DNA of 64,000 nt, taken from the NCBI GenBank assembly GCA_963774265.1, contig CAVZDU010000005.1, forward strand, positions 320,001 through 384,000. The letters are read 5' to 3'. The stretch's first letter is position 1; the number at the start of each line of letters is the position of its first letter. Source of the stretch: an uncultured Chloroflexia bacterium (lineage in GTDB: Bacteria > Chloroflexota > Anaerolineae > CG2-30-64-16). Of the stretch, positions 3,124 through 64,000 are shown piece after piece. Under the pieces are notes generated by a model. It ran no database searches. It had not been told where the DNA came from and worked only from the letters and a program-made list of their open reading frames with translations. The translations under genes were made by a program, and so were the position numbers.

Positions 3124-3171
3124 AAACGCTTGTTCTATAGCCACTATGACACGACGCGGGGGCGAGGTCAA
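3124..3171 (-). promoter_or_regulatory. Sigma70 promoter with LexA-like SOS box for the helicase-primase operon
   Basis: TTGACC (3171-3166), 17-bp spacer ending in TGt, CATAGT (3148-3143); GAACAAGCGTTT at 3135-3124 fits GAAC-RNRY-GTTY. Confidence 0.6.
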
Positions 3172-3213
3172 GGGGTTTGGGAGGTCAATTTGGGTCGAAA
3201 ATGCCGGTTGAAG

Positions 3214-3246
3214 ACTGTACACTTATGAACTCTGTACAGTTATAAT
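3214..3246 (+). promoter_or_regulatory. Operator-like inverted repeat and -10 box of the GT2 gene (probably leaderless)
   Basis: ACTGTACA-N11-TGTACAGT (3214-3240) abutting TATAAT (3241-3246); ATG 7 nt later, no Shine-Dalgarno. Confidence 0.55.
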
Positions 3247-3253
3247 ATCTCTG

Positions 3254-10883: not shown

Positions 10884-10899
10884 GTGGGGAGGGGGTGAG

Positions 10900-11585: not shown

Positions 11586-11638
11586 GGTTGGAGGCTGGAT
11601 GCTGGTCATGGGGTGTGTTACTCCGGAGGAGGCTGACC

Positions 11639-11730
11639 ATGTTTGAGGAAGCATCTCCTGCCCTGAGCGGCGTGCCCGCAACCATGCTCATGACTCTCTA
11701 CATCTTCCGGCTCGGAGAGGCGGCTGGTGA
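11639..11730 (+). pseudogene. Internally deleted relic of an LCM-type methyltransferase (paralog of 18575-19438)
   Basis: 5' end ctgagcggcgtgcc...ctctac joined directly to a 3' end cttccggctcggagaggcggctggtgaaaagac; both match the ends of 18575-19445. Confidence 0.7.
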
Positions 11731-11752
11731 AAAGACCTTTGGGAGGCAACCG

Positions 11753-45711: not shown

Positions 45712-48700
45712 TCACGGGACGTTCCGCGCGATGAAGGGCAGATATTGTGACTGCGTGGCTTGTGTGAAGTAGCGCCCTCGATTGTCAGCGACCGCCACAT
45801 TCCCAGCGCCGTCCACTGCTTGTATGAAGTAGGCCAGGCCAAATTGAGCGGGCAGTGAACCTTCCCATATCTTCGGATCCTGGCGCGGCGCTAGCTCGAC
45901 GGCCTGCCATATGCCGTCACCAACCGTGTAGGTCGCCACGACCCGAACGACCCCGGAGAAGTCCGTTACATCCACCAGCACGGTTGTCGAAGCGTCGCCC
46001 TGCTGCTGATCGCGCACGGCCCAGATGCTGGGCGGGATGACATCGCCGGACGCGGAATAATAGACCATGTACGTCATTTCGTTGAACAGCCGCTCTACCC
46101 CCTGCGTCGCGCCGATCGCCTGGTATTGTGCAGGGATCAAGATCAATCGCTGGAGCAGGCCTTCGGGCGCGCGCACCGTATTGATCACGCCCCAGGATGA
46201 CGGTGTCCAGACCCTTGTGTCGAAGCCGGGATCGATCGCGGCGCCAACGCTGCGCGTGTCGTCGCTGGTCGGCTGCGTAAGCACAGGGGAGAACATGGCG
46301 TGGGTCTCGTAGCGCCCCCCCTCGAACAGTGTCCCGCGCGCCACCGTGCCCGCCAATGTGACACTGATCCCGGTGCGCGGCTGGATCGGCTGGCCCGGCG
46401 CCACCTGCGTTTCACCGCCGATGCTGTAGTAAGTCCGCGTTGTGTCGCCTGAAGATACCGTGTTGGGCGCATCATAGTTCGGCGCCACCAGCACCCGGCG
46501 GCAGATCAGACCCTCAGGGCAATTCTCGGCCTCGCTCGGTTGTCCGGCGGCGATATCGCCGCGACCGTGTCGCGCGATCGTGTCGGTCGTCGCGGCAGCC
46601 GCCGCGCCCGGCATCTGCACGCGATACATAGGCAGTCCATACAGGGTGGCTACGGCCAACACCTTTTCGTCGTAGGGTGTCAGCGAATGGACGCCGACCG
46701 AGTTGAAGTATTCGATCTCAGCCCCGCGTAACGCCTGGCCCACTGCGCCATCCGCCCGCAGGTGCTGGGCAAAGAGCGTCATCAATCGTTCCGAGTAACC
46801 GATGGCATTGGCGTCCCCGTAGCCATATCCCGTGTTGGCGAGGTATGTGACGCCCTTCCCCACGAGCGCCTGTGCGAAATCGAGCTGGTGGGCAGTGGCC
46901 TGCTCGTCGGGCACGGGGAGGCCGGAGTGGCAGCCCACGGAGAAGACCACGGTGCCAGAGAGTTGGCTGCTTGCGCGCACCTGCTCGGGATCCAGATCCC
47001 CCCCGGCGCCCTCGGCCGGGAGGGCGTGCCAGTGCTCGAAATGCGCGTTGATCGAGCTCAGGTCGTGACGGTCATCCAGCCATTTGGCCTTTAGCGCGGC
47101 CGCCTGCCAGGAGTCGTTGATCAGGCTGGTGTCGGTGTCCAGGCCGGCGCTCTGCATCGCGTCCGCCACAGCACGGGCCTGATCCTTGAGAAAGTCGTAG
47201 CCGACGGCCAGCCCGGTCTGCGCGGCGAGAACCGGCTGCTGCAGGAAGACATCGATCGCCGCGGCGATCTCTTCCGGGGTCTCCACGAGCCGGCCGATGG
47301 CGTAGTCGGGCAGGGTCAGCTCTCGCCCGCGCCAGGAGAACGGGGAGAACCCGGCGTAGTAGGTATCACTCAGGAAGTAGCGCCCCCGTAAGCTGGCGCC
47401 CAGGGGAGAGTCGTCAGCCAGGAAAGCGTGGTAGTCCTCTTCGTTGGCCACCGGCACCTCGTCGGGGATGCGACGGAAAGGCACCACTTCATCATCCCCG
47501 GCGATCACCAGGTTCTCCAGATCGGGATAGGCGGGGCGGAGCGCTGACAGCAGGGCCTTGATCGCGGCCGCGACCAGGTTGGCGTGCGCCGGATCGGACC
47601 GGCTACCATCCCACAGCCCGTAGACGGCCCTGACTGGGCCGTATGTGTTCAGGTCGATTACCTCGCCGGCAACCTGGGGATGCCGCGCCAGCTCACCGAG
47701 TTTATCCAGAAGCGCTTGTGTCCGCGCAACGCCGTAGCGTGCCTTGAGCCGCGTCCCGTTGGTCAGGATCAGCGTCTTGACCCCCCCGTGCGCGGCGTCC
47801 GGCGCCGCGAAGACCGGCGGCTGAAACCCGGGGTCCAACACCGCCTGGCCTTGTGTCACAGTGATCGCCAGGGTGTAGGCGTGCTGGGGATCGTTGGCGC
47901 CGTTGTGGCCGGCCACCAGCAGGTGATACCAGCCGCTCTGGTCCCAGACGTCCGTGCCGACCGTCTCCGATTGGACGCCGGTGCGGCAACTGGCGCGCAG
48001 CAAGGCGCCGGTGTCTGCCGCCAGGCCCACGCCGGCCACCTGCCCCAGGTACGTCGGTGAGCAGCTCTCGCCGCTCCCCAACTCGCCGGGGATGCCCTGC
48101 AGGTTCCCGATCCCCTGGAGGTTGCCGATGCCTTGCAGGTTCCCGACGCCACCGGGCGAGGCCCCCGGGGCTTGCTCCAGTCCGCCAAACAAGAACGCAT
48201 CGTAGTCCTGCGGCAGGGCGCTCAGTGTGGCGGTGATCGCCGCGTTGCGGGCACCCACCGGGATGCGGAACCACTGCGGATCTCGCTCGCCGGAGATGGT
48301 GAAGTGATGAACGCCGGGCACCAGAACGGGTGCGGTGAGCCAGGCGTCCTTCGCACCGGGGTCCGTGCGCCAGTTGAGCACGTTCACGTCGCCGCTGACC
48401 GCATCGCCCGCGCCGGCCGGGTTGCCCGGCGTATGTGGCCCCGTGGCGCTGCCCCACCAGGCGCCGGACGCGTCGATGGGACTGTCGCTGCCGTTTTCGA
48501 TCGCGAACCCGCCGTTGCCCGCCAGCGAGTTGCCCACAAGTGTCAGGGCGCCGCCGCGCGCCAGGATGCCGTCCTCCCGGCTGGCGGCGATGGTGCTGGA
48601 GATGACGTTGAGCGTGCCTCCATCCTGCGTGATGCCGTTTGCCGCGAACTCGACGCTGGTGTAGCTCAGCGAACCGGTGCTGCCGGCTGAGAATGAGAGC

Positions 48701-50787
48701 CCTTTCCAATCACCCGGCAGGGGCGCTGCGAAGCGCCCGGCGCTGGTGAAACGGACCGGGCCTGTTTCACTCCCAATGGCCACCAGCACTCCGGCGATCT
48801 GGGCGCCCCGGCCGAAGTCGAACTGTACGTTCACGCCCGGCGCCAGCGTCCACGTCCGGCCGGCCGGTACGGAGATGTCGTCGCTGACAACGCGGTAGGT
48901 GTCCAGGTCGCCCTGGGGTGTCCACGTCTCGTCGCGCTCACCGACTGTTCCGCCGGTCACCTGAACGACGTTCTCGCCGTTGGCCGAGAAACGGTTGTCC
49001 ACCAGGGGATTCCCCAGGGTCAGCCGAGCCGCCAGGCCGCCTTGATTAGAGATCGTGTTCTTTTGGAAGACGTTGCCGGTGCAATTCGACAGTAGCTCCA
49101 GCCCAACCGTGCGGTTGAACTCGATCAGGTTGCCGGCCGCGGCATCGGCCCCGCCAATCTGGTTGTTCGCGGCGTCATCCAGCCTGATGCCGGCGTTGTT
49201 CGGGACCGGCTTGGCGCCGGACGCGTCCGCCCCGATGCGATTGCCCGCGATCTGGTTGCCTGTTACGAGGAAATCCGATCCTTTGAGCACGATTCCTTCG
49301 CCTCGGTTGCCGCTAATCAGGTTGCCAGCCGTACCCGTGCCGACGATATTGTCGCTGGCGCCGCCGTGGAGCTTCACGCCCGCGAGGGCGTTCGGCACAG
49401 CATGGCTGCCCGTGACGTCGGTGCCGATATAGTTGCCCAGCACCTGGTTACCCGATGTGCCGGGCGATTCGAGGGCCAGGCCGTTGCTCCCGTTGCCGCT
49501 GATGACATTGCGTTCTGCTGGCGTTTGTCCGCCTATCACGTTGTCGGCACTGCCGAGGTGAATGAAGATCCCATCGTCGCCGTTTCCGAGAGCTGCCTGG
49601 CCCGCGGCATCGACGCCAATCCGGTTGCCCGCCACCACGTTGCCCGCCGCGCCTGGATTTTGGATCGAGATGCCGTTGCCCTGATTGCCGCTGATCAGAT
49701 TGGCCGCGCCGTAGCCCGTTCCGCCGATCATGTTCTGGCCCGCGCTGCCGAGGTGGATGCCATCCCCGCCGTTTGGCAACATGTCCGTGCCCGTGGCATT
49801 GGCCCCGATGATGTTGCCCGCGACCCGGTTGTGTTCCGCGCCGGTTTCCTGGATCCAGACGCCGCTCTGGATGTTACCGCTGATAAGATTGCCCGCGCCA
49901 GCCTCGCCGATCACGTTGTGGTCCGCATCGGAGACCAGGATTCCATGTCCCTGGTTGCCGAGCGAGGCGCGGCCCGTCGCATCGGCGCCGATGATGTTGT
50001 CCAGGACGCGATTGGCGGACGTGCCACTGATTTGGATGCGGACGCCGTCCTGCCGGTTGCCGCTGATCAGGTTGCCTTCCACCACGTTCTCATTAGCGCC
50101 GTCGCTGATAATCACGCCGTTTTGTCCGTTTGCCATGGCGCGCAGGCCTGCCAGGTCGGCGCCGATGATGTTGCCCAGCACGCGGTTAGCCGAGGTGCCG
50201 GTGTCTTGGATGAGGACTCCATCCTCCCGGTTGGCGCTGATGAGGTTGCCCTGTCCCAGGGGCGCCGCGCCGATAGTTCGCGATCCACCGATGACGGCAT
50301 TTCGCGCGCCGTCGGTCAACGCGATGCCATAACGCGGGAAGTTCAGGACTTGCAGCCCGCGAACTGTCACGCCCTCGGCGCCCTTGATGCTGAGGCCGGA
50401 GCTGTACTGCGCCCCGCTCCCCTCCAGGATCACGCCGGCGTTGCTGGCGTCGACTGTCAGTGACCCGGCCGTGATCACGGGAAGCCCGCTCTGCAAGGAG
50501 ATCGTCATGGGAGCTGAAGGAGGGAACACCGCGGGGTCGAACGTGATGACGTCGCCTGCCTGCGCATCGGTGAGCGCCGCGCGCAGCGTGCCCAACCCGC
50601 CGTCAGCCGGGCTGGTGACGACGACGCTGCGCGCGGCCGGCGCCAGGACCTGGCCCACGATAGACTGGGGCGGCGCAAAGCCTAGCGCCAGGAGGACGAC
50701 GAAGACGATGCGCAGGCAGGGGAGCCCTGCGTATCCGCTTTTCGTTCGTGAACGCTGCGCCACGGTGGTGGTTCTCCTGGCAGCCAT
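45712..50787 (-). CDS. Large secreted protein: parallel beta-helix repeats + PPC-like domain + peptidase C25 (gingipain-like) domain, C-terminal YLPFI motif
   Basis: VVTSPADGGLGTLRAAL, repeated NLISGN/GNxIG; LVIAGDDEVVPF, LSDTYY, AIGRLVETP, SINAHF, FSVGCHSG, YLANTGYGY, LYGLP. Confidence 0.8.
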   Translation of the reverse strand: MAARRTTTVAQRSRTKSGYAGLPCLRIVFVVLLALGFAPPQSIVGQVLAPAARSVVVTSPADGGLGTLRAALTDAQAGDVITFDPAVFPPSAPMTISLQSGLPVITAGSLTVDASNAGVILEGSGAQYSSGLSIKGAEGVTVRGLQVLNFPRYGIALTDGARNAVIGGSRTIGAAPLGQGNLISANREDGVLIQDTGTSANRVLGNIIGADLAGLRAMANGQNGVIISDGANENVVEGNLISGNRQDGVRIQISGTSANRVLDNIIGADATGRASLGNQGHGILVSDADHNVIGEAGAGNLISGNIQSGVWIQETGAEHNRVAGNIIGANATGTDMLPNGGDGIHLGSAGQNMIGGTGYGAANLISGNQGNGISIQNPGAAGNVVAGNRIGVDAAGQAALGNGDDGIFIHLGSADNVIGGQTPAERNVISGNGSNGLALESPGTSGNQVLGNYIGTDVTGSHAVPNALAGVKLHGGASDNIVGTGTAGNLISGNRGEGIVLKGSDFLVTGNQIAGNRIGADASGAKPVPNNAGIRLDDAANNQIGGADAAAGNLIEFNRTVGLELLSNCTGNVFQKNTISNQGGLAARLTLGNPLVDNRFSANGENVVQVTGGTVGERDETWTPQGDLDTYRVVSDDISVPAGRTWTLAPGVNVQFDFGRGAQIAGVLVAIGSETGPVRFTSAGRFAAPLPGDWKGLSFSAGSTGSLSYTSVEFAANGITQDGGTLNVISSTIAASREDGILARGGALTLVGNSLAGNGGFAIENGSDSPIDASGAWWGSATGPHTPGNPAGAGDAVSGDVNVLNWRTDPGAKDAWLTAPVLVPGVHHFTISGERDPQWFRIPVGARNAAITATLSALPQDYDAFLFGGLEQAPGASPGGVGNLQGIGNLQGIGNLQGIPGELGSGESCSPTYLGQVAGVGLAADTGALLRASCRTGVQSETVGTDVWDQSGWYHLLVAGHNGANDPQHAYTLAITVTQGQAVLDPGFQPPVFAAPDAAHGGVKTLILTNGTRLKARYGVARTQALLDKLGELARHPQVAGEVIDLNTYGPVRAVYGLWDGSRSDPAHANLVAAAIKALLSALRPAYPDLENLVIAGDDEVVPFRRIPDEVPVANEEDYHAFLADDSPLGASLRGRYFLSDTYYAGFSPFSWRGRELTLPDYAIGRLVETPEEIAAAIDVFLQQPVLAAQTGLAVGYDFLKDQARAVADAMQSAGLDTDTSLINDSWQAAALKAKWLDDRHDLSSINAHFEHWHALPAEGAGGDLDPEQVRASSQLSGTVVFSVGCHSGLPVPDEQATAHQLDFAQALVGKGVTYLANTGYGYGDANAIGYSERLMTLFAQHLRADGAVGQALRGAEIEYFNSVGVHSLTPYDEKVLAVATLYGLPMYRVQMPGAAAAATTDTIARHGRGDIAAGQPSEAENCPEGLICRRVLVAPNYDAPNTVSSGDTTRTYYSIGGETQVAPGQPIQPRTGISVTLAGTVARGTLFEGGRYETHAMFSPVLTQPTSDDTRSVGAAIDPGFDTRVWTPSSWGVINTVRAPEGLLQRLILIPAQYQAIGATQGVERLFNEMTYMVYYSASGDVIPPSIWAVRDQQQGDASTTVLVDVTDFSGVVRVVATYTVGDGIWQAVELAPRQDPKIWEGSLPAQFGLAYFIQAVDGAGNVAVADNRGRYFTQATQSQYLPFIARNVP

Positions 50788-50809
50788 AGGTCCCTCCCAA
50801 AGCGTGCAT

Positions 50810-53800
50810 CTACCTCAGCACTATCGGCAGGTAGATCTGTCTCAGGTGCGTGTCGAGGCCGAACGAGAACTCGGACGTGGTTCCCTGCGGATCCGTGGCC
50901 GTGGCGTGCAAGAACGGCAGCGGCGGCGGGCTGCTCAGCGTCACCGTGAACGTGTTGGTCGCGTTCGCGGTGGCAGCCGCCAGGTAGACCGTACCCGCCG
51001 GCTGCGCGTCGAGGTTGGCGAAAACCTCCACCCGACAGCCCGCGCACGCGGCTCCGGTCAGCGTGCTGCTCTCGATCGTGTACTGGCCGAGGACTGGGGC
51101 GTTCACCGGCCCAATCGGTTGCGGTGTGTCCACGAAGTCAATCGGGAGCCCGGCGTTGTGGTGGATCGCGTTACGAGTGATCGTGTTGCGCAGGGTCTTC
51201 TCACCGCTGATGATCACGCCGGCCAGGTCGTTGAAGAGGATCGAGTTGTACGGCCCGAGGATGTTGCCCTGGCTCTCCCCGGTGAGTACGATGCCGCCAT
51301 TCAGGTTACCCAGATCGCCCGTGCCCGCTGCGCGGGCGCCGATGATATTGCCGGCCACCCGGTTGAGGGTTGTCCCGGTGTTCTGAATCCATACGCCAGC
51401 CCCGCTGTTGCCACTGATCAGGTTGCCCTCGCCCGCCGCCTCCCCGCCCACAACGTTGCCGCTGGCGGCAAAACAGATCGCCACCCCATCCGCCGCATTG
51501 GGTATGGCGTGAGCACCGCTAACATCCGTGCCGATGTAGTTGCCAAGCACGTTGTTCCCGGTCGTCCCCAGGTTTTTGATGTAAACGCCGGCCATCTCGT
51601 TCCCGCTGATGATGTTGCGCATACCGGCCTCTGCACCGCCTACCACGTTGTCAAATGCGCCGAAACCGATATGGACGCCGGCCTGCCCGTTACCGAGCGC
51701 TTTCGCGCCGGTTACGTCGGCGCCGATAGTGTTGCCCAGCACGCGGTTGCCGGTGACATCCTGGTTGATATTGACGCCCATCTCGGCGTTTCCGCTGATG
51801 AGGTTGCCATCCCCCGGCGTCTCCCCGCCGACCAGGTTGTCGCTGGCGCCCTGGGAAATGATCACCCCATCCTTCGCGTTGGCGAGCGCGGCCGTGCCGT
51901 TCACGTCTGTGCCGATGTAGTTGCCCTGCACCCGGTTGCCGGTCGTCCCCGGGTCTTGTAGCTGTACCCCATACAGACCGTTGCCGCTGATGACATTGCG
52001 CGCGCCTGCCGTGTTTCCACCGACCACGTTGCTGGTGGACCCATACATGATCAGAACACCGTTCAGTCCGTTGCCGAGCGATTGTGCGCCCGTGACATCG
52101 GCGCCGATGGTGTTGCCCTTAACTTCGTTGGCCGTGGTCCCGGCGCCCTGCATGAAAACCCCGTGCTTAGCATTGCCGCTGATAATGTTAGCCGCAGCAG
52201 GCGTTTCTCCGCCCACCACGTTTCCGCTGGGACCGTCGATAAGGGCAACGCCATCACCCTGGTTGCCGGGCGCGGTTGTGCCGTTCGCGTCTGTGCCGAC
52301 GTAATTGCCCAGCACCTGGTTGCCGGTCGTCCCTGGATCCTGCAGCCACACGCCGCCGTTGATCAAGTTGCGCGTGCCAGGAGCTTCCCCACCGACCACG
52401 TTGTTGCTGGCCGTGAAGCCGATGAACACGCCTGTCTCGCCGTTGGTCAGGGAATGCGTGCCCGTTGCGTCCAGGCCGATAGTGTTGCCGACGATCCGGT
52501 TGTGATCGGTGCCGGCTTGCTGGAGAGACACCCCGTGCCCGCCGTTGCCACTGATAACGTTGGCCGCACCCGGCGTCTCTCCGCCGATGATGGTGTCGTG
52601 CGCGCCGAGGGCCAGCACGATGCCCACGTCCCCATTGCCTAAGCTGCCCGTGCCCGTACCATCGGTGCCAATGTAGTTGCCCAATATCCGGTTGCCGGCT
52701 GTGTCTGCGTCCTGGAGGTAGATGCCGGCCTCATCAGTCTCATCGTTCCCATCGCTATTTCCGCTGATCAAATTGCGTGCACCCGGTGTATCGCCGCCCA
52801 CCACATTGTTGCTGGCGCCGGCCATGATGACGATGCCGTCTCCGGAGTTTGCCACGGCCTTCGTGCCTGTCGCGTCCGCGCCGACGGTGTTGCCCAGAAT
52901 CCGATTGTCGTCGGAACCCAAACCCTGTATGGTGATGCCCCGGTCGCCGTTGCCGCTGATGACGTTGCCCGCGCCCGCTGCGTTCCCACCGATGGAGTTG
53001 CCGCCCGCGCCACCGAGGATAGTGATGCCGTCGTTGCCGTTGCTTAGCGCACTGATACCAGTCACATCAACGCCGATCAGGTTACCCAACACCTGGTTTC
53101 CCGTGGTCCCCGCGTTTTGGATCCACACGCCGGAACCTCCGTTGCCGCTGATCAGGTTGCCCGCGCCCGCGGACGTCCCGCCGATGGTATTGCCGTGAGC
53201 GCCAAAACCAATCAGGAGGCCAGCCTCTTCGTTGCCTAGGGCGACGATCCCTGAGGCGGCCGTGCCGATGAAGTTGCCCGTCACCCGGTTGCCCGTCGTA
53301 TCTGCGTCCTTGATGAGCACACCGGACAGGCCGTTGCCGCTGATTACATTCCGCAACGCGACCGTTGCGCCGCCCACCACGTTATCGTGCGCGCCGAAGC
53401 CGATAAGGACGCCCAGTTGGCCATTGCCCAGATCGGCCGCACCGTTCACTTCCGTGCCGATGATGTTCCCCACGACCCGGTTGCCCGAGCAGTCCTCGTT
53501 GAGGTTGACGCCGATCCGGCCGTTGCCGCTGATCAGGTTGCCCGTGCCCGGCTCCTCCCCGCCCACCAGGTTGTCATCGGCCGCCAGCAGGACCACCCCA
53601 TCGACGCTGTTTGGGATGGCGCTTGTGCCGTTCAGGTCTGTCCCGATAAAGTTGCCCTGGATGCGATTGTTGATGACGCCCGGCCCCTCCAGCCAGACGC
53701 CCGTATCCCCGTTCCCGCTCACCAGGTTGCCCTGACCCAGGGGCCCCGTGCCGATCCCTCGATCGCCGCCGATGACGCAATCGTGCGCGCCGTCGAGCAG

Positions 53801-54439: not shown

Positions 54440-54505
54440 GGTCTTTCCTCTTCTGAATACCCGGCACCTCCTGGCACTAAGTGCCGGGCGCCACCGGGCA
54501 GATGA

Positions 54506-57500
54506 TCAGAGCGATCGGCGGAGGTCGCGCGCCAGCTCGGCGTCGAGGCGCGCGCCCAACTCGTCGAAGATGGCGAGGGCGCGCTCGCAAGTCGACCGGG
54601 CTTGTACGCGTGTCGCCCCGTCGGCCCCTGCTCCCTGCAACCGGGCGAGCACAACCAACGTCAAGGCCATTTCGTACGGGTTGCGCTGCGCTTCGAGGAT
54701 GGCCAGGCTCTCGCGTAAGGAGGTTTCTGCCTCGACACGCCGTTCCAACGCAAAGTAGACTTGGCCCAGGATGCACCGCGCCTGACCCAGCTCGATGCGA
54801 CGCTCCAGTCGGGTCGCCCAATCCACGGCCTGCTGCGCCAGCATCAGCGCTTCGTCCGGACGCCCGCCCAATAGCTGAAGCTCAGCCTGGTAGCGCAATA
54901 TCTCCGGCAGGTACACGTCAGTCCCGATGCGCTGAAAAGTGGCCAGGCCTTGCTCCAGGTGCTCCGCGGCCTGCGCGACCGCACCCTGCTTCAGGTAGGA
55001 TGCGCCCAGGTTCATGAACGCCATGCCGGTGGCCTCCTGGAAGCCGAACTCCTCGCCGATCTGCCGAGCCCGTTCGTAGACCGCGATCGCCCGTTCCAGA
55101 TCGCCCTGCCGGCGGTAGATCTCGCCCAGGTTGATGGCCGCGGCGGCCTGTCGCCATGTTTCACCGGTCCGCTCGGCCAGCTCGGCGCTGCGCTCGAAAC
55201 AACGCAACGCCTCGGGCCACCGGCTCAGGTCCTGGTACACGCAGCCGAGGTTGCTGGTGGCGCGTTCGAGTCCGGCGCTGTCGCCGGCTGCCTCGTAAAG
55301 GGCGATGCTGCGCTCGTGCGCCTCGATGGCCGGCCCGCTCTCGCCCATGTTGCGGTGGATGAGGCCTTGAAGGTTGTACGCCTGGGCGAGATCCTGCGGG
55401 CTATCGGCCTGCGCCAGGATGGCGATTCCCTGTTCGCAGGACGCCAGCGATTGGGCCAGCTCGCCGCGGCGAAAACGCAGCAATCCATTCCACACGTGCA
55501 GCCGGCCCGCCTCCAGGCACGCCTGCCCGTCTACGACGGACAACCCTTTTTCCAGCGCAGCCTGGGCTGCGACGAGATCGCCCCGGTCGTGCAACGCCAT
55601 CGCCAGCCTGCGGTACAGATCGGCCTGCCGCGGCGCGGCGAAGATCGCTGAGCCTGCCACCAACTCCAGCGCAAGCGTATAGCCGGCGATCGCCTCATCC
55701 AGGCGGCCGATCGCGGCTTGGACGCCGGCCTGCCCCTCGCTGGCCTCGACGCGCCAACGGAGGAGCTGATCCAACGTGGCGCCGCGCTCCTGTTCGGCCT
55801 CATCGGGCGGCAGGGTCGCGAAGTTCCTGGCTTTTGCCAGCGCCCGGTCGAACCAGTTCAGCGCGATGGTATTGGCCCACGTATCGGCGGCGCGTCGGGC
55901 AGCCCACAGGCAATAGCGAAGGGCTGAACAGCGGTCGTCGCTGCGGTCGAAATGATGCGCCAACAGCTCGAGAGCCTCGACCTCGCGGCCCGCGTAAACC
56001 CGCTCCAACGCCCGTCCCAGGCATAGATGTGTGCGCGGCTGTGCGTCGGCGGTGAGTGCATCGTAGGCAACTTCGCGAAGCAGGGCGTGCGTGAAGCGGT
56101 AGCTCGGTTCGCCCCAGCGATGGTAGAGAAACTCGCGGGCTTCCAATTGCAGCAGACCCTCATCCAGCGCGGCATCGCCGCCGGTCTCGGCCAGTGCTGC
56201 GGCCAACACCTCGACGTCCACCTGATCGCCGGCGACCGCAGCCATCGACAACACACGCCGCGCGGCTTCCGGCAACGCGTCCATGCGAGTCAAGATGAGG
56301 CGTTGCACCGTGCTCGGCAGGAGAGCCGGCGACGCGGCCTCGGCCGAGGCCGAGGTTGCGGATTCTCGCACCGCCAGCGTCAGCTCACGGAGGAAGAACG
56401 GGTTCCCCCCCGCCCGATCGAGGATCGCCCGAGACAGGGCGGGGGGAACGACCTCAGGCGCGAACAACGCAGCCAGCAGGCTAGCGCTCTCAGCTTCCCC
56501 AAGGCTGGCCAGCCGCAGCCAGCGATGATTCTGCCGGTTCCACCAGGGCGGCTGCCAGGAGGTCTCGGAACGGAAAAGCGCGATGAGCAGCACGGGCAGC
56601 CGCTCAAAGCCGCCGGCAAACTGGTCGAGCACGTCGAGGCTGGCATCGTCGGCCCAATGCAAATCGTCCAGAATGACGATCAGCGGCTGATGGACGGCGC
56701 GCCGTGCCAGCAGCCTGCCGAGCAGGCGCACGATCCGGCGCTGGAGGGCCCTGGGCTCAACCTGGGCCTGCGGGAGATCGATCGGTGAAGTCACGGCGAG
56801 AATTTCTGCCAGGACGGCTACGTCTTCCGAATGGGCCAACCCCGCTGCATCCACCCCCAGCGCGCGGCCGAGCGCCGCGGCCAAATGACTGCGCGCCTCC
56901 GCGCCGGCAAGGGATGGCGCAAGGTCCAACAGGCCGCGAAATAGATCCGCCACCAGTTCGTATGGGCCAGGACGATAGGATGATCGGCAGGCTGCGGCCA
57001 ACCAGCGGATCTCCCTGGTGGAGCCGGAGGTCCCTTGTTCCGCAGGGCCGGTTCCCGGTGGGTCAACTCCCTGGCGAAATTCCTGCAGCAGTCGCGACTT
57101 GCCCGACCCCGCCTCACCTGCGATGCTGACGATCTGTCCCCGGCCCTGGCGGCATACATGCCAGGCTTCCTGGAGCGTAGCCAACTCGCGCTGTCGCCCG
57201 ATGAGCGGCGCCTGGTGTCCGGGCGCCTGCCAGCGGAACGGATCACCGGCGGTCGGCCCCAACACCTGGTAAGCCGCGAAAGCGGGATCAGCTTCCAGCC
57301 GCACATCCGGCCGGGCGGCCAGCTCGAAGAGAGAACCGGTCAGGCGCCGCACTGGTTCGGCGGCCAGGATGGCGCCGTCGCCAGCCTGCCGGGCCAGCCA
57401 CACGGCCTGGTTCACCGCCTCGCCCAGCAGTGTCACGAGATGCGACCTCCAACCGTCCTGTGGAGGCCCCCCGCCGCGGTCCTCGGCTGCGAGAAGGTCG

Positions 57501-59016
57501 CCGCTGCTCAGGCCCACGGCAACGCCCGGGCCGCGGCCGGCGCTGGGGCCCTGCGTCCCACGGGGACGGCTCTCATTCACTGCGATCATCTCCAGCGCCG
57601 CGCGCACGGCCCGTTCTGCGTCGTTCTCGCGCGTCCCAGACAGGCCAAAGACGCCAATGAGGAGATCGTGGCCGAAATCCAGCGGCCGGCCGCCGTAGCG
57701 GAGGATCAGCCCGGCCAGCGCCTCGACCTGCTCCGCCAGCTCGCCCACGAGCGGCGCGCCGGCACTCCCCAGGTGCCCCCCCAGGTGCCCGGCACTTCGA
57801 AAGTGCCGGGCACCTTCTGCACCTTTTTTCTCGCGATCCGGCTCCCCCCACAGCGCCTGGACGCCCAGCAGGCGAGCGGCCAACACGGATGCAGGCCGGC
57901 GTTCGACCCGTGGCGGGGCCAGCAGTGGCGCGTCGGGGTCGCCGTAGAGGGCAAAGGAGGCCCACAGCGGATCCGCGGGGTTAGCCGTGCGCGCCGCCCT
58001 GCCGCGCCTGACGCATTGCTTCCCCCGCCGGCATCCCGCGCAGCGCCGCCTGGTAGAAGGAGAGGACGAACACGGGCGCGTTGGGGTCGGCCACCGGCCA
58101 GAGGGTGCCGATGACCGCCTGCCGCGCCGCCCTGGACAAAGGCGGAGGCCAGACCGGCGGCGTTCTGGCCAAGGTAGGCCAGGCCTGCGGGGTCGTCCAC
58201 GCTTGCGGCGTCGACCTGCTGGCGCGCGGTTTCGCACCCGTTGAGGAAAACGAACGGCCGTCCGCCAAGGTTCTTCTCGATCTCGGCGCCTGTCAGCACC
58301 TCGTTCGGCGCCAGGATCAGCCCGCCGCCTTCGGGTGTGGCAGGGTCGAAAAAAGCGTGGCCGGAGTAGTGGACCAGGTCGTATGCGCCGCTGGCGAGCT
58401 CGCCCAGCACCGCCGAACGGGTCGCGCGGCGGCGCATCAGGATGCGCGGCGGGGCTGTGCCCGGCGTGGCCTGGAGCAAGCGCACCAGCTCCTCGACTTC
58501 CCGATCTGCATGGGGCAGATCACCGGTGGGGTTGCCGATGATCAGCGCGGTGAACTGCCGGCGAGGGGGCAGGGGGTTTTGCCGCGGCGGGTGCGCCAAT
58601 AGGAACCGCCGGGCAACTGCAACCTTGAGGGCCAGGTAGTCCTCGCCATCGTGCGCCAGCTCCCACGATAGCTCCCCAGCGCTGGCGTCGATCAACAGCG
58701 ACGCCCCGGGGGGGAGCTCGGCGAGGGCTTGCATGACGGCCGGGGGCAGCCGGTTGTAGATCAGGCGCGCGATGCGGAAGAGAGGATCGATCGCCGTAGA
58801 GTCGCTGGCAGAAGCGGCAGCGTGGGGGCGCAGGATGCGTTGGCCGAGCAAACGCGCCGCGCGGTCGAGCTCGGCCCGCTGCGCCCGATCGGCCTCCGGG
58901 GACCGCGGTTCCCGCGCCAGCAGGATGGCGGCACCGGGCCGTGAGCCGGCCGGCTGCCACATGAACTGGCACGAATCGCCCTCCTGCAGCAGCGATAAGA
59001 CCGCGGGTGACGACAC
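54506..59016 (-). CDS. CHAT (caspase-like) protease + degenerate class III cyclase + STAND ATPase + TPR protein (frameshifts near 58120 and 57990)
   Basis: LSWEL, IIGNPTGDLP, VHYSGH, FLNGCET, VIGTLWPV, WASFALYGDP; ENDAERAVRAAL; LIGRQREL, GEAGSGKS, ILDDLHWAD, GGNPFFLREL, FTHALLREVAY; TPR array. Confidence 0.85.
57783..57815. repeat. Palindromic element inside the cyclase-like domain
   Basis: aggtgcccggcactt-cga-aagtgccgggcacct. Confidence 0.8.
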
Positions 59017-59035
59017 GGGAAACCCCTTTCGACCA

Positions 59036-59926
59036 TCAGGCCGATGCAAATAATAGCGGAAACTCCCACGCCTTCTCGGCGTACTCGACGCGAATCAGGT
59101 ACTCACCGATATCCAGGTCACGGAACAGAACCACGCCATCTGCGCCGGTGGAGGCGCCCTCCAGCAAGGTCCCATCGGCATCCCGCAACGTCACACGGGC
59201 CTGCGCGATGGGTTGGGGCGGATCGATCGTGCCGGCCGCCAGGGCGAGCACGCCCCTGTCCTCGAAGACCGGCCCGAGACTGACCTTGAGCATCAGATTG
59301 GCCTCGGGATGGGGCAGCGCGAGCAGTTCGAGAAAATCCCGTGCTTCCTCAGCGGGGGCACGCGGCCTTTTGTCCCGGTATACCGGGATGGGCGCCAACT
59401 GGACGGTCAAGGGCGCGGCCAGCACGCCGAATGAGGCGCCGGCGCGGTCGATCAACACCGGGATGGTGGCGGCCAGACGATGCAGGCCCTCGGCGGTTTG
59501 CTTCCAGAGGCCAGATTGCACGCCCGGCAGGAAGGACAGGTCCGGCCTCGGGTAGGAGGGTGGTTCCGCGCCACTCTCCCCATCAGCCAGTGAAAACAGG
59601 CCGATCAGCGACGTTTGCGCGGCGGCGCAGTGGGGACACGCCTCCAGGTGACGCCTGACGTGGACCCACTCAGGCCCGTCGGATTCGCCCAGGCTCTCTG
59701 CGGCCAGATAACCGGGCAGAACCCCCTGGCACTCCTCGCAGGTGAGGACGTCTTCGTCCGCTATCTCTGCCGCCAGCAGTCGCACCAGGTGACTTGCTCG
59801 CCCTCTGCACGCGGGGCACGCCCTGAAATGATCGTGCACCCCCACGATTTCGGAGCGGCGCGTCTCCGGAGCATTCAGAAATTCCTCGAACGCCTCGATC
59901 ACCTCGCGGCAACCGGTCTTCGCCAT
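59036..59926 (-). CDS. Double zinc-finger (ZAS-like) anti-sigma factor with C-terminal Ig/carboxypeptidase-regulatory-like domain
   Basis: C...HFRACPAC and C...HLEACPHC; ARVTL...TGADGVVLFRDLDIGEYLIRV; no TM segment. Confidence 0.82.
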   Translation of the reverse strand: MAKTGCREVIEAFEEFLNAPETRRSEIVGVHDHFRACPACRGRASHLVRLLAAEIADEDVLTCEECQGVLPGYLAAESLGESDGPEWVHVRRHLEACPHCAAAQTSLIGLFSLADGESGAEPPSYPRPDLSFLPGVQSGLWKQTAEGLHRLAATIPVLIDRAGASFGVLAAPLTVQLAPIPVYRDKRPRAPAEEARDFLELLALPHPEANLMLKVSLGPVFEDRGVLALAAGTIDPPQPIAQARVTLRDADGTLLEGASTGADGVVLFRDLDIGEYLIRVEYAEKAWEFPLLFASA

Positions 59927-60774
59927 GTCATTATTCCCCCTTGAATAGCATCGTCCGAACATGAAAGAGAGCCCGAGCCGCAAAACGTTACAGTTCTCAA
60001 CGTCGAGAACCAGGAGGCTCGCTTGACAAGGCTGCGTTCAGCTGCCGCGTCAGCCCGGAGCCGGTCCACTCCCCTGTGGCGCAGGACGCGCACATGTCCG
60101 GACGTTATGCCAAGACGATGGCCGATATCTTCATCGCTCAACCCACCGAAGAACTTCCATAATACAACGGAGCGCTGCCGGGGATAAGGCAGCCGCTCGA
60201 TTGCTTGCAGCAGCGCGGCCGTGCTCTCTGCGGACAGCAGGCGCTCGGCCAACGCACCCGCTTGACCATCGGCAAGCATTTCGGCCAGATCATCCAGCAC
60301 GACATCGCTCCCTTTCCGGGCACGCTGCTCCTGCTGGAAAGCATGGCGCAGCTTGTTCAGCGCAAACGCCAGGAAAGTGCCGGGCTCGCGGCAGCGATCG
60401 AGCTGCACATAGACCAGGACCAGCGCGCGCTGGGCCGCGTCCTCCGCCAGCTCGGGCCAGCGGTTATAGGCCGCGCGGTATAGGACGCGGTGCAGGTCCC
60501 CGAAGGCGGCCTCGCGCTTTTGAGGGTCCCGGTTTTGGAGACATGCTTCGTACAGAAGGGCCGAGTAGTGGTGCTTGGCGAGCCGGTCGAAGGTGGCAGA
60601 CGAAGCGTCGGGCCCGGCAGCACGCCAGACGCGGTCCACGAGCTCTTCTTCGCCGGCGCACGTCCAGGCGCCCCTGGCCATCAGCGTAATCACCGCCGAC
60701 CGGCAGGCCGCGCGAGCATAATCTGAGGAGATGGGTTCCTCGGCTGTTATCTCATCCATGACGGCTGCGTCCAC
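59899..60774 (-). CDS. ECF-type RNA polymerase sigma factor (C-terminal extension may reflect a frameshift)
   Basis: AEDAAQRALV, FLAFAL (region 2); LPYPRQRSVV...GLSDEDIGHRLGITSGHVRVLRHRG (region 4). Confidence 0.88.
   Translation of the reverse strand: MDAAVMDEITAEEPISSDYARAACRSAVITLMARGAWTCAGEEELVDRVWRAAGPDASSATFDRLAKHHYSALLYEACLQNRDPQKREAAFGDLHRVLYRAAYNRWPELAEDAAQRALVLVYVQLDRCREPGTFLAFALNKLRHAFQQEQRARKGSDVVLDDLAEMLADGQAGALAERLLSAESTAALLQAIERLPYPRQRSVVLWKFFGGLSDEDIGHRLGITSGHVRVLRHRGVDRLRADAAAERSLVKRASWFSTLRTVTFCGSGSLSCSDDAIQGGIMTWRRPVAAR
59964..59993 (-). promoter_or_regulatory. Putative ECF promoter upstream of the anti-sigma/CHAT operon
   Basis: CTGTAAC-N17-CTCTTT, 38 nt before the anti-sigma ATG. 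Confidence 0.65.
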
Positions 60775-60892
60775 ATGGGTTCTGGAGGCGCCTGGCTGCC
60801 CGGACGCCGGTGAATTCCATCGCGACTGGAGGCGACCGCATGATAGCGCACGCCGCGATTCTTGCCAAGTCGGTGGAGGCCGGGGCGAAAGG

Positions 60893-60922
60893 CTGTAACA
60901 CGATCGGCCGCAGCTGCTCTTT
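60893..60922 (+). promoter_or_regulatory. Putative ECF promoter upstream of the FxLYD lipoprotein genes
   Basis: CTGTAAC-N17-CTCTTT with identical boxes and spacing. Confidence 0.65.
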
Positions 60923-61070
60923 TATCCATAGAAAATAGGGAGTTGTCTGCCTTTGCCGCTGGCCGCACCTGATCTATCATACCGTGCTGGCCGGGATGAT
61001 CTCCACTTGCACCGATTCGCACAGACGCCGCCGCGAAGGCCGTTCGCCATGACAATGAAAGGGAAGCGCC

Positions 61071-63095
61071 ATGCGGACCCAACCTGCTCGTATCCTGTGG
61101 ATGGCACTTGTGCTGCTGGCCGTGGCAGCCTGCCAGGGAGCTGCGCCGCGAGAGCGAACAGAACCCGCGAGCACCGCGGCTGCGGCGGAGTCGACGCCCA
61201 CTGCCGTGGCGCGGGCCGCGCCCACCGCCCCTTCGCCCGCATTCCCGGGTGTGCAGGCCTCGCCTGTCGGAGTGGAGCGAATGGGAGCGCTGCGGATTTT
61301 TCCCGGGACGGTGAAGACGGTCTTTGTGCTCGAGAACCATGCGCCGCGCGGCTATGCGCCGGTCACCTACCACCTCTCCCTCTACGATCTACAGGACCGG
61401 GCCGTCGCAGAACTTGACGGCGAGATTGGCTTCATCTTCCCGAACAGCCGGTCAGCCCACGAAGCGCGGCTCTTCTATGACCGCAGCATCTCGGTGGCCC
61501 GGGTGGATTTGCGCATCCGGCCGAACCTTGACGACCGGGGCGACAACCAGGGTGCAGCGGGGAGCGGCTCCATACCGATCGCGGCCGGGAGCGCGCAGTA
61601 CTGGCCCAGCATAGACCACCGCCACGACAAGGTCACGGCCCTATTGAGCAATACCTCGGATCAGCCCATCGACTCGGCCGGCGCCACCGCGCTGCTGTAC
61701 GACGTCGCAGGGCAGATCGTCGGCAGCGGCAGCAACAGCCTCGGCGTCCTGCCCACGGGCGGCCAGATGCAGGCGGAGATCGATGTGGACATCATGGGCG
61801 ACGTGGACCGCGCGGAAGTCATTCCCTTCTTCTACCACCCGCCTGCCGGTCTGGGCGCTTCCGCGGCCCAGCCAGCGTCCCCGTCCGGCGCGCAGGAGAC
61901 GCCGCCGCCCAGTGCCCAGGCCCCCGAGATCCTGGCGAGCTGGTTCATGCAGAACAGCTCGAATGCGAGTGTATTCGACTACGCGCTCCTTCTGGCGAAT
62001 CCGAATCCATCCCTCGACCTGCACGACATCGAATACCAGGTGGTGGCCTACGACGACGCCGGTTTGGCCGTGGCATCCAGCACGGCCTGGCTCGACTGGC
62101 TGCCTGCCGGCGGCCGGCTGGGCATAATAAACACCCTCGTGGTCGACAACGACGAGATTCCGGCGAGAATCGAGGCAGCCATCGCCGCGCCCGGACGGCC
62201 GCAGGCTCCTGCCGGCGCACAAGTCGCGCCCCAAGCCGGGCCGGCGGTCCTCGCCAGCTATGGCGACTGGAATGCCGTCTCGGGCCGGGTCGGCAACGCC
62301 CTCGGCCAGCCGGTGGCCGGCGTGAGGGCTAATGCGTTGGTCTTCGACGACAGTGATCGACTCGTCGGCGCGGGAGAAGGCCACGATGATTATTTCATCC
62401 CGGCAGGCGGCCAGGCACCGGTGGCCGTGAAGATCGCCACGACGGGTGTGCCCGTCCGGGCCGAGCTCTACCCCTTCTACGCGCCGATGACGGGCGGTCC
62501 GCAGGCCGCTTCGGGCCTTCAGCCTCTCAACGTGGTCGCTGCCGGTTTTGCACAGCACCCGCAAAACCCCGGCAGGGTGACCGCGGCCATCGTGGTCGAA
62601 AACCCCAACCCTGGGCAGGCCATCTCCGGCGCCGCGTATCAGCTCGCGGCATACGACTCGGTCGGCGCACTCCTGTGCACGCTCGCCGGTGACAGAGATC
62701 CTCTTCCCGCCGTCTATCCCGGCGGCAGGACCGCCGTCGTGACCAGCTTCGAGGTGCCGGCGCAGGCCCAGGTCGCCAGGGTGGATGTAATGTGGGATCA
62801 GAGGGAGGCGAAACTGGCGCCGGGTCGGAATCCCCTGGCCGGCGACAAGGCGACTTATGTGGCCGAGACCTATCCGAAGGTCACCGGGCTGGTCCTGAAC
62901 AGCAGCGAAAAAGAGATCACACGGGTCAACGTCTATGCCGTCCTCTACGACAGGGACGGCCGCATCATCGGCGGGGGCGGAGAACAGGTCGATCGTGTGC
63001 CCGCCAACGGCCAGATCCCGGTGGAGATGATGGTCGATTCGACCGGAGTCCCGGACCGCGTGGAGATCTATGCCGGCCCGGCAGAACTCGATTGA
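61071..63095 (+). CDS. Lipoprotein with repeated FxLYD-type Ig-like domains
   Basis: Lipobox VAAC; repeated LSLYD/ALLYD/VVAYD/LVFD/LAAYD/AVLYD..G.I.G modules with (E/A)NPNP. Confidence 0.8.
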   Translation: MRTQPARILWMALVLLAVAACQGAAPRERTEPASTAAAAESTPTAVARAAPTAPSPAFPGVQASPVGVERMGALRIFPGTVKTVFVLENHAPRGYAPVTYHLSLYDLQDRAVAELDGEIGFIFPNSRSAHEARLFYDRSISVARVDLRIRPNLDDRGDNQGAAGSGSIPIAAGSAQYWPSIDHRHDKVTALLSNTSDQPIDSAGATALLYDVAGQIVGSGSNSLGVLPTGGQMQAEIDVDIMGDVDRAEVIPFFYHPPAGLGASAAQPASPSGAQETPPPSAQAPEILASWFMQNSSNASVFDYALLLANPNPSLDLHDIEYQVVAYDDAGLAVASSTAWLDWLPAGGRLGIINTLVVDNDEIPARIEAAIAAPGRPQAPAGAQVAPQAGPAVLASYGDWNAVSGRVGNALGQPVAGVRANALVFDDSDRLVGAGEGHDDYFIPAGGQAPVAVKIATTGVPVRAELYPFYAPMTGGPQAASGLQPLNVVAAGFAQHPQNPGRVTAAIVVENPNPGQAISGAAYQLAAYDSVGALLCTLAGDRDPLPAVYPGGRTAVVTSFEVPAQAQVARVDVMWDQREAKLAPGRNPLAGDKATYVAETYPKVTGLVLNSSEKEITRVNVYAVLYDRDGRIIGGGGEQVDRVPANGQIPVEMMVDSTGVPDRVEIYAGPAELD

Positions 63096-63116
63096 GACCG
63101 TGAGAGAGAGGCGAAC

Positions 63117-64000
63117 ATGACGGCGCAAACCAAGCTGTGCACGGTGATACTCCTCCTGGTCCTGGCGGCCCCGGCATTGGGCGGCTGCCGGTCGGCTCCT
63201 CCCGCAGCTACCAGCACGCCCACCGCCGAGACAGAGCGCGCCGTCTTACCTGCCGCGCCGGGCAGCGAGCCCGCGCCCCCGGTCGCGCAGCCTCCGGCCC
63301 TGACCGCGGCCCCCCCGGCATCGGAACAACCCCCTGCCCAGGAGGCCTATCCGGGCGTGGTGGCGTCAGGCAACGCACCGGTCCTGGGGGGCGCTGCCGA
63401 GCCGCTGGCAATCTCGCCGGTCGACGCCGAGGCCCAAGCCGTGCGCGTGGCGGAAGTGATCGAGGTGCTCAGCGTGTGGAAGGACAGCTGCGGGCAGCTG
63501 CTGGTGCTCGAAAATCCCAATCCCGATCTCGCCATCCAGAACATCCAATACCGGCTCACCGGCTACGACAGCGGCGGGGCCGTCCTGGAAACGGATGAAT
63601 CCAGGATCGACGTGCTCTATCCCGGCGAGCGCCGCAAGATTTACCTGGGCATCCGCAGCCAGGAAGGCGCGCCGGCCGCCCGGCTGGAGTTCACGATCGT
63701 CGGGCAAGGCGAACCCGGGCGGACGAGCCTGGCCGCCGACAGCCTGAGCATCGAGCGCGTGCAGTACTGGCCTGAGGCGGGCGCCGTGACCGGCATTGCC
63801 ACGAACCGCTCGGACTTCCTGATGAGGATGCCCGTGCTGACCGCTTTGCTCTACGATCAACAGGACCGGTTGATCGGCTTCGGCGAGATGCCGTCGCTCC
63901 ACTTCGTGCCGCCCCGGGGACAGGCGGGCGTATCCGTGCGCGTCCCCTACAATCTCGAAGCTGCCCGCGTGGAGCTGCTGGCCGTGCCGAAGGGCAGCTG
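63117..64000 (+). CDS. Second FxLYD-type lipoprotein, truncated by the window end
   Basis: MTAQTKLCTVILLLVLAAPALGGC lipobox; LENPNP, LTGYDSGG, ALLYDQQDRLIG; absent from the ORF track because it has no stop in the window. Confidence 0.75.
   Translation, partial: MTAQTKLCTVILLLVLAAPALGGCRSAPPAATSTPTAETERAVLPAAPGSEPAPPVAQPPALTAAPPASEQPPAQEAYPGVVASGNAPVLGGAAEPLAISPVDAEAQAVRVAEVIEVLSVWKDSCGQLLVLENPNPDLAIQNIQYRLTGYDSGGAVLETDESRIDVLYPGERRKIYLGIRSQEGAPAARLEFTIVGQGEPGRTSLAADSLSIERVQYWPEAGAVTGIATNRSDFLMRMPVLTALLYDQQDRLIGFGEMPSLHFVPPRGQAGVSVRVPYNLEAARVELLAVPKGS

Follow-up and report, generated by a model that had tools for sequence, protein, structure and literature searches.

Sigma, anti-sigma and sensor-protease genes

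We examined a 64,000-nucleotide stretch of DNA from an uncultured Chloroflexia bacterium (GenBank assembly GCA_963774265.1, contig CAVZDU010000005.1, positions 320,001 to 384,000), which we call the window. Near its end lie three adjacent minus-strand genes for a sigma factor of the extracytoplasmic function (ECF) type, a soluble anti-sigma-like protein and a sensor-protease with an N-terminal CHAT domain. An earlier note had proposed that this protease cuts the anti-sigma protein in a cytoplasmic, CRISPR-independent pathway, and that the freed sigma factor induces the surface proteins encoded beside it. The region from 45712 to 64000 comprises seven open reading frames (ORFs). Five are on the minus strand, with the sensor-protease spread over three frames, and two are on the plus strand, which agrees with the closely spaced minus-strand genes and divergent lipoprotein genes of the note. 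Eight proteins of the region were scanned with Pfam and seven with NCBIfam. The sigma, anti-sigma and CHAT genes are each single-copy in this genome (a 5.5-Mb, 10-contig assembly).

The first gene (59899..60774, minus strand) is a 291-codon ORF for an ECF-type sigma factor. The NCBIfam model sigma70-ECF (TIGR02937) covers residues 92–240 with 57.7 bits against a cut-off of 42.9. Sigma70_r4 lies above the Pfam cut-off (3.9e-9) and Sigma70_r2 below it (0.0031). These matches confirm the assignment made in the note. Neither Pfam nor NCBIfam assigns a family to about 90 residues at the N-terminus and 50 at the C-terminus. The 3' end of the gene overlaps the start of the anti-sigma gene by 28 nt, and the anti-sigma gene is followed by the CHAT gene after a spacing of about 19 nt.

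The second gene (59036..59926, minus strand) encodes the soluble anti-sigma-like protein of 296 amino acids (aa), which was delineated from alignments A1 and A9 and from an AlphaFold2 (AF2) model of the orthologue at locus L010 (L and G numbers are our labels for loci and genomes). Two three-helix bundles of ZAS-like type are followed by a disordered linker, which contains the motif YPRPDLSFL, and by a beta-sandwich at the C-terminus. Both HxxxCxxC motifs, and the Cys that lies upstream of each at ZAS spacing, are kept without exception in 20 homologues (50–70% identity, all metagenomic). The residues are C6/H33/C37/C40 and C63 or C66/H93/C97/C100, and by their spacing they are two copies of the ZAS arrangement. 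A hydrophobicity scan of the window protein found no membrane helix (highest 19-residue Kyte–Doolittle mean 1.49); the maxima of the anti-sigmas from three relatives are 1.18–1.41. The two fingers and the lack of a membrane segment are as the note had them.

Family models place this protein loosely. CarboxypepD_reg matches weakly (1.7e-5, below the cut-off), as does the NCBIfam RsrA model (0.00027, below the cut-off). In relatives, zf-HC2 is above the cut-off at L034 (3.1e-7), and it is precomputed for the close homologues P0002, P0004 and P0019. The AF2 model of the L010 protein has a mean predicted local distance difference test (pLDDT) of 69 and a predicted template-modelling score of 0.34. 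It places three-helix bundles at 6–55 and 63–115 (block pLDDT 79–92) and the beta-sandwich at 235–329. Residues 118–232 are mostly disordered, with low-confidence helices at 131–140 and 174–200. A Foldseek search with this model returned solely beta-sandwich look-alikes and nothing on the helical bundles.

A profile of the anti-sigma gave 6827 matches at E<=0.001 among 1.84 billion representatives. Among the best 150 matches, 83 are giant proteins aligned over a beta-sandwich repeat only, and the other 67 are full-length proteins of at most 340 aa. These short representatives carry two HxxxCxxC motifs in 21 cases, one in 40 and none in six. All ten that were looked up are unnamed or "hypothetical".

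The third gene, for the sensor-protease, spans 54506–59016 (minus strand, about 4.5 kb) and runs through three reading frames. An N-terminal domain and the CHAT protease domain occupy 57950..59016, as traced by tblastn with an intact orthologue. CHAT (PF12770) scores 1.6e-20 in the window fragment and up to 9.1e-38 in relatives. The His motif HYSGHAFF (codon 58357–58359) and the Cys motif FLNGCET (codon 58234–58236) were read directly, and the dyad H225 and C266 is invariant in relatives (alignment A7). A degenerate cyclase-like domain follows at 57330..57930, with the first metal-binding Asp replaced. Read directly here, it adds to the first description of the protein; relatives L033 (5.9e-8) and L076 (3.8e-8) match Guanylate_cyc, and L010 matches TOMM_kin_cyc in part. 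The AAA_16 domain at 56582..57208 (9.6e-25, residues 344–552 of a 1243-aa ORF, Walker A GEAGSGKS) precedes a C-terminal region of tetratricopeptide repeats (TPRs) at 54506..55870 (TPR_12 4.7e-36; TPR_MalT 9.9e-12), the presumed sensor. All of these lie on the minus strand. An AAA_16 P-loop followed by TPR repeats identifies the protein as a STAND NTPase, and the fusion of an intact His/Cys CHAT domain to a STAND ATPase and TPRs is thus as first described.

Two frameshifts interrupt this gene, at 58115..58118 and 57992..57998 (minus strand). At each site the window has a single base more than L010 and L014 (columns 65 and 188 of DNA alignment A2, and three-frame tblastn). The orthologues are intact, with 1513 aa (L010) and 1498 aa (L014), and tblastn with an intact orthologue spreads the CHAT domain over three frames. 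Two frame-breaking single-base insertions about 120 bp apart in one gene would suit a true pseudogene, and with it a dead switch in this genome, as would the fact that three long ORFs nearby, which total about 14 kb, are open. However, essential genes are frameshifted in the same assembly. In rpoC, the reading frame changes within the universally conserved ...KSLSD / LLKGKQGRFR... motif, and rpoB is likewise split (contig C7 of G000, about 3122–3640 and about 5678), with the rpoB N-terminus on another contig, C8. Because rpoB and rpoC cannot be broken, the assembly must have indel errors at about one per few kilobases, and two shifts in a 4.5-kb gene fit this rate. The shifted segments also keep 73–76% identity to the orthologue and have no other damage. 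The two frameshifts are therefore probably assembly errors, and we regard a dead copy as very unlikely. The note had named real frameshifts as a ground for refuting its proposal, a ground that is probably void given the state of rpoB and rpoC. Public reads over 57000–59000 (one run, X1, share 0.07) gave short pieces of relatives and bridged neither site. Frequent indel errors may also lower the completeness estimate of the assembly, which is 84%.

A conserved core with exchangeable input modules

The sigma factor, the anti-sigma and the N-terminal CHAT domain are a conserved core, found again in about ten other Chloroflexota genomes and on several metagenome contigs. The conservation of the trio, on which the proposal depended, is borne out by metagenome, phylum and all-species loci, and no CRISPR genes lie beside it, as expected of a CRISPR-independent unit. 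Across 12 metagenome loci, the anti-sigma is matched in seven, the sigma factor in five and CHAT in five. The STAND part is present in two (L010 and L014), with a weak TPR match at 23% identity in L019. The order sigma, anti-sigma, CHAT is kept in L010, L011 and L012, and anti-sigma then CHAT in L014 and L015. A small lipoprotein-like gene stands between anti-sigma and CHAT in L015 (389–1201), and L009 ends inside the same gene (2271–2837). In L034, a small lipoprotein-like gene (10694–11359) stands between sigma and anti-sigma.

When the window anti-sigma was used as the query, 34 of 40 other genomes, which are close relatives of the window genome, gave no match, and G006, G021, G022, G024, G026 and G031 gave weak partial matches only (best E 7e-7, query 44–143). 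The narrow anti-sigma alignment A1, when scanned against the genome collection, brought up no relative. The phylum sample comprised 401 Chloroflexota genomes, our own included. A broad anti-sigma profile matched 69 of them at E<=1e-8. The match is full-length in only five (our own, G055, G052, G101 and G399), and CHAT lies directly downstream in all five. The upstream 210-aa ORF in G399 has no BLASTP similarity to the window sigma factor and only weak ECF model matches, below the cut-off. A query with the CHAT N-terminal part hit 32 of the 401 genomes. Thirty loci were retrieved, and five of these have the anti-sigma upstream. The remaining CHAT homologues that were inspected belong to other protein types, Macro-AAA_16-CHAT and C11-CHAT, and have caspase or HEPN genes beside them.

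An all-prokaryote scan with CHAT alignment A7, one genome per species, extended the comparison. Nine of the best 80 CHAT loci have anti-sigma and sigma genes directly upstream on the same strand, and all nine are from Chloroflexota (labelled Chloroflexota, Anaerolineae, Anaerolineales, Caldilineales or Ktedonobacterales). Three of these nine are contigs already found, and L077 and L078, with identical scores, may come from a single organism that was binned twice. In eight inspected loci without the anti-sigma (L085, L088 and L091 are not among them), CHAT lies C-terminally in the protein. In this data, N-terminal CHAT goes with the sigma/anti-sigma pair. Chance adjacency of the three genes was rejected on the synteny counts.

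The constant features of the anti-sigma were defined from an alignment of 11 proteins from confirmed triads. The second-bundle HLxxCxxC is kept in 10 of the 11. Directly after this bundle, 10 of the 11 have the motif P-x-F-D-x-S-F-L, in which the Ser is invariant. One Trp, one Arg and the beta-sandwich are also constant. Since three of the 11 have no first bundle, the double finger is, on this alignment, a feature of some lineages only, and the second zinc-finger bundle is the constant one. In a search with a loose regular expression, the linker motif was matched in only 10 of the 67 short representatives of the family; it is therefore claimed for the triad subset only.

The module after CHAT differs by lineage, and four forms stand on the constant core. 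The window, L010, L014, L076 and L086 have the cyclase-like, AAA_16 and TPR form, which is also that of most of 59 related protein clusters known from proteins alone. L033 adds a solute-binding protein (SBP) domain to the STAND-TPR part (SBP_bac_5, 2.4e-80). In L034, L035 and L077, a helical region and then one strongly hydrophobic segment, taken as a membrane helix (Kyte–Doolittle 2.3–2.7 near residue 520), lead to Sortilin/BNR repeats. A Peptidase_M50 (site-2-protease family) gene at 11393–12499 (plus strand) of L035, in the G101 membrane/BNR lineage, is divergent from the sigma gene. The fourth form has a complete ClpA/C-like double AAA+ module (Clp_N, AAA, AAA_lid_9, AAA_2 and ClpB_D2-small). 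This unfoldase-like module is fused to CHAT in L082 (5821–9756), L090 (2203–6009) and L094 (2192–5983), where sigma and anti-sigma genes precede the fusion and a Pkinase-TPR gene follows it; in G399 (L069) the Clp-like ATPase is a separate gene, next after CHAT.

The Clp fusions would suit wholesale degradation, and we considered that the protease degrades the sigma factor itself or trims its N-terminal extension of about 90 residues, with the zinc-finger protein as an adaptor to CHAT. For the ECF54 context, a review, in the part available, proposes that proteases degrade the sigma factor itself (PMC8999054), and here an unclassified extension does precede sigma region 2. However, a ZAS-type protein stands between sigma and CHAT in every triad, in the usual place of an inhibitor. 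In the membrane/BNR lineage the extension is also far shorter, with region 2 beginning at residues 41–49 and not near residue 92. We consider this alternative quite unlikely, and an attack on the anti-sigma remains our preferred reading.

The complex of CHAT residues 1–360 and the anti-sigma, both from L010, was predicted with separate alignments and three controls. The pair scored 0.69 against 0.14 for the best of the three controls. A score of 0.69 is reached by 58 of 80 solved complexes and by two of 110 mismatched pairs, a calibration that is approximate here because custom alignments were used. Contact agreement between the runs is at least 51%, and the partner pLDDT does not fall below 59. 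In the confident interface, CHAT residues 176–207 meet anti-sigma residues 278–308 (RVTLRD...DGVVLFRDL), the best-conserved stretch of the beta-sandwich. This modelling, suggested in the note as a check, supports docking of the anti-sigma beta-sandwich on CHAT.

Expression and neighbouring genes

A sigma-70-type promoter, TTGGCA-17-TATCAT, lies upstream of the sigma gene (60840..60868, minus strand; 10 of 12 consensus positions). A consensus scan found three such sites in the region against 0.2 expected. The −35 TTG and the TATCAT/TATGAT element are kept in all five aligned orthologous upstream regions, together with part of the spacer, and conservation ends further upstream. This conserved promoter suggests that expression is constitutive and that control is exerted at the protein level. 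There is no sign upstream of sigma of the auto-regulated ECF promoter that is common in such operons. In the sigma 5' leader (60775–60840) and its orthologous leaders, a conserved GC-rich inverted repeat stands just before the start codon; in L010 and L012 it reads GGCGTCCG ... CGGACGCC.

Two large genes follow the sensor-protease on the minus strand. The first (50810..54439) encodes a secreted repeat protein of 1209 aa without a Pfam or NCBIfam match. We take it to be beta-helix-like because it shares 45% identity with the Beta_helix part of the protein encoded next to it. That neighbour (45712..50787) is a secreted beta-helix protein of 1691 aa with a hydrophobic N-terminal segment and a Beta_helix match of 1.3e-19. 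Its Peptidase_C25 match is partial, with residues 1073–1179 on model positions 46–143 of 374 (30 bits, 3.8e-7). Of the two secreted beta-helix proteins that had been described, one with a C25 domain, the Beta_helix assignment of the 1691-aa protein stands; the C25 domain is only partial and the 1209-aa protein is unmatched in Pfam. Paralogues of both proteins (39–43% identity) occur on contig C2 of G000 at about 602775–605600. Divergent from the sigma gene on the plus strand, an FxLYD-domain lipoprotein of 674 aa (61071..63095; NF038353, 1e-17) agrees with the earlier description of FxLYD lipoproteins. A second lipoprotein (63117..64000, plus strand), a paralogue at 29–31% identity to the first, runs off the window. 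The lipobox was read in both.

These neighbours vary. The beta-helix genes recur in one close orthologue, L014, the only close metagenome locus that reaches that far. The FxLYD lipoproteins are matched in none of the 12 metagenome loci, and the genes downstream of the trio differ in distant lineages. The beta-helix and lipoprotein genes are, by this comparison, outside the conserved unit. The 67-nt spacer before the beta-helix gene holds palindromes resembling repetitive extragenic palindromic (REP) elements, here and in L014, and no recognisable promoter. The claim that the sigma factor induces neighbouring surface proteins thus lacks support: the one conserved promoter is the sigma-70-type promoter before the sigma gene, no ECF-type promoter was seen before the beta-helix genes, and the neighbours are poorly conserved.

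The REP-like family (AGGTGCCGGGCACCT and variants) has 80 exact-pattern matches in 46 clusters genome-wide. The copies in the window lie at 57759–57815, as an in-frame insert inside the cyclase-like domain, at 54330–54386, after the signal peptide of the 1209-aa protein, and at 54479–54493, in the spacer between the two genes. The orthologues L010 and L014 hold such palindromes at corresponding places.

The beta-helix genes adjoin a plus-strand gene (40451–45622) for a 1723-aa protein that combines helix-turn-helix, nSTAND1 (1.9e-126) and WD40 domains with a Bmp/PnrA-like solute-binding domain (3e-36) at its C-terminus. This is a further STAND protein, with a sensor of the solute-binding type, and it adjoins the module.

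The nSTAND1-WD40 neighbour is one of several features that would fit an NLR-like conflict or anti-phage system with other, lethal substrates, in which the sigma/anti-sigma pair regulates or reports, or in which the anti-sigma-like protein inhibits or adapts CHAT and is not its substrate. STAND proteins with caspase-like effectors are typical of such systems, the distribution among relatives is patchy, and other CHAT homologues in the phylum adjoin caspase, HEPN and Macro domains. Kaur et al. (2021), in the part available, describe caspase neighbourhoods with ECF sigma factors (PMC8195603), which we also count in favour of this alternative. Against it, no PADLOC family covers the proteins. Domain-level matches to BovA (2.5e-9) and TPR (4.8e-8) fall on the CHAT-STAND protein, and none falls on sigma or anti-sigma. 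The NCBIfam model Avs1b gives 0.0058 and has a 1500-bit cut-off. Beside the triad there is no conserved gene for a toxin-like effector, and the BNR propeller and SBP inputs look like environmental sensing. A conflict system is, in our judgement, unlikely, and we return to the sigma switch.

A proposed sigma switch and known systems

We propose the following sequence of events. Sigma, anti-sigma and sensor-protease would be co-expressed from the housekeeping-type promoter. The N-terminal zinc-finger bundle or bundles of the anti-sigma would sequester the sigma factor, and the C-terminal beta-sandwich would, as modelled, tether the anti-sigma to CHAT. The TPR/STAND part would read the signal; in relatives this part would be played by the SBP domain, the extracellular BNR propeller or the ClpA-like unfoldase with its adjacent kinase gene. 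As the behaviour of STAND proteins and caspase-fold enzymes suggests, the signal would activate CHAT by nucleotide-dependent assembly. CHAT might then cut the disordered anti-sigma linker, perhaps at P-x-F-D-x-S-F-L and, more speculatively, after the Asp of FD-x-SFL. With the sigma-binding fragment lost, the sigma factor would be freed. The whole chain would make a cytoplasmic protease-gated sigma switch, in which we infer the cleavage, the sigma binding and the regulon, and we give it a probability of roughly 55%.

Besides the ECF54 proposal of sigma degradation, several observations weigh against this interpretation. Six of seven same-genus genomes have no anti-sigma match, and the seventh, G006, has a partial one (E 2.7e-5, query 24–183). 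zf-HC2 (PF13490) has no match in the window anti-sigma in the Pfam scan at E<=0.01. The anti-sigma profile matches sequences in the Protein Data Bank only weakly (RsiW 0.028, RslA 0.14 and DdvA, 8rlz_A, 0.18). The first bundle is not constant in the triads, and one of the 11 anti-sigmas has no HxxxCxxC at all. The confident contacts of the modelled complex leave out the catalytic dyad and the linker. Visual inspection and alignment revealed no ECF-type promoter upstream of sigma or before the beta-helix genes. Finally, the CHAT gene is broken in this assembly, with neither site bridged by reads.

A wider reading takes in all the loci and is more tentative, at somewhat less than even odds. They may form a Chloroflexota signalling family with a constant N-terminal CHAT domain, a docked soluble anti-sigma and an ECF sigma output, to which STAND-TPR, STAND-TPR-SBP, transmembrane propeller or ClpA-like inputs with a Ser/Thr kinase are interchangeably attached. 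The STAND form would be a bacterial pathway of the type "NLR, caspase, transcription factor", with gene expression and not cell death as its output. The Clp fusions would represent a novel type of ATP-dependent protease with a caspase fold, and FD-x-SFL would be the cleavage site.

If the switch is real, the bacterial STAND/caspase machinery would be linked to transcription, not to suicide, by a cytoplasmic system that stands alone and is driven by an NLR-type NTPase. The exchange of input modules on a constant core would provide a natural comparison set for the activation of CHAT proteases. The hypothesis is directly testable, since the protease and its presumed substrate are separate soluble proteins and intact orthologues exist.

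Membrane cascades (DegS/RseP) are known to release a sigma factor by cutting its inhibitor, and the same has recently become known of proteases linked to CRISPR. The published systems below are compared as far as the available parts of their descriptions extend. One related system is DdvS/DdvA of Myxococcus xanthus, where an ECF sigma factor is held by a zinc-binding three-helix-bundle anti-sigma domain and a CHAT module is present (PMC11506125). Its CHAT module with a His-Cys dyad was proposed, not shown, to start sigma release, and autoproteolysis was likewise a proposal (PMC11506125). DdvA differs in being a single transmembrane protein with a periplasmic TPR-CHAT part, and its activation would proceed via RseP (PMC11506125). 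Here, the anti-sigma is a separate soluble protein (Kyte–Doolittle 1.49), and the CHAT domain, which is cytoplasmic, forms the N-terminal part of a STAND NTPase protein.

The type III-E Craspase system (Cas7-11, Csx29, Csx30 and CASP-sigma) shares a soluble CHAT protease and a soluble inhibitor of an ECF-like sigma factor. Csx29 cleaves Csx30, which relieves the inhibition of CASP-sigma (PMC10028731). However, Craspase is activated by target RNA binding guided by CRISPR RNA (PMC10028731), and no Cas or Csx family was found among the eight proteins of 45712–64000 scanned with Pfam or the seven scanned with NCBIfam. The inhibitor here is a ZAS-type anti-sigma with a beta-sandwich, not Csx30, and CHAT precedes the sensor where the Craspase protease has TPR then CHAT. 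CalpL/CalpT/CalpS is likewise a three-part system of protease, anti-sigma and ECF-like sigma, with the sensor domain on the protease. It differs in that CalpL is a Lon-SAVED protease activated by cA4 from type III CRISPR, and the Pfam scan of the eight proteins found no Lon or SAVED domain.

The gene context of ECF54 has CHAT, "carboxypeptidase" and subtilase proteins, according to a single sentence of the review (PMC8999054). ECF54 has been described from Actinobacteria and as being without an anti-sigma, and its proteolytic control has been proposed but never tested (PMC8999054, PMC7826278). The likeness is a CHAT gene beside an ECF sigma gene; the CarboxypepD_reg match is weak here and below the cut-off. 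The difference is the subtilase, of which the Pfam scan found none in this cluster. The ECF54 "carboxypeptidase" protein may be a homologue of the CarboxypepD_reg-bearing anti-sigma. It could then be the missing anti-sigma and explain the "carboxypeptidase/CHAT" context of ECF54-like sigma factors.

Sister cassettes within Chloroflexota have a sigma factor and a shorter, related anti-sigma (profile about 40–265), both encoded on one strand, beside CHAT (L038 in G289, at G289:C9 6873–11017; G165; G294; also L161 and L162). In these, CHAT is C-terminal to the TPRs, the genes are convergent, no NTPase is present and the anti-sigma has no beta-sandwich end. The stop codons of the anti-sigma side and the convergent TPR-CHAT gene overlap, and in G289 an NB-ARC-LysM protein is encoded nearby. 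Avs and other bacterial NLR-like proteins combine an effector, an NTPase and a repeat sensor, and the effector can be a protease. The sensor-protease has the same three-part layout. Unlike Avs, its output appears to be a transcription factor and not cell death, and no sign of Avs membership was seen in PADLOC, which gave no Avs match, or in NCBIfam (Avs1b 0.0058).

A full-text literature search, which in part covered titles and the beginnings of abstracts, returned no description of a STAND- or Clp-fused N-terminal CHAT protein beside sigma and anti-sigma genes. The novelty is narrower than had been assumed, because the ECF54 context, in the available part of the review, lists CHAT and DdvA fuses an anti-sigma to TPR-CHAT. 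A protease-gated sigma/anti-sigma switch is already known; the modular architecture, with CHAT fused to STAND or Clp modules, is unusual.

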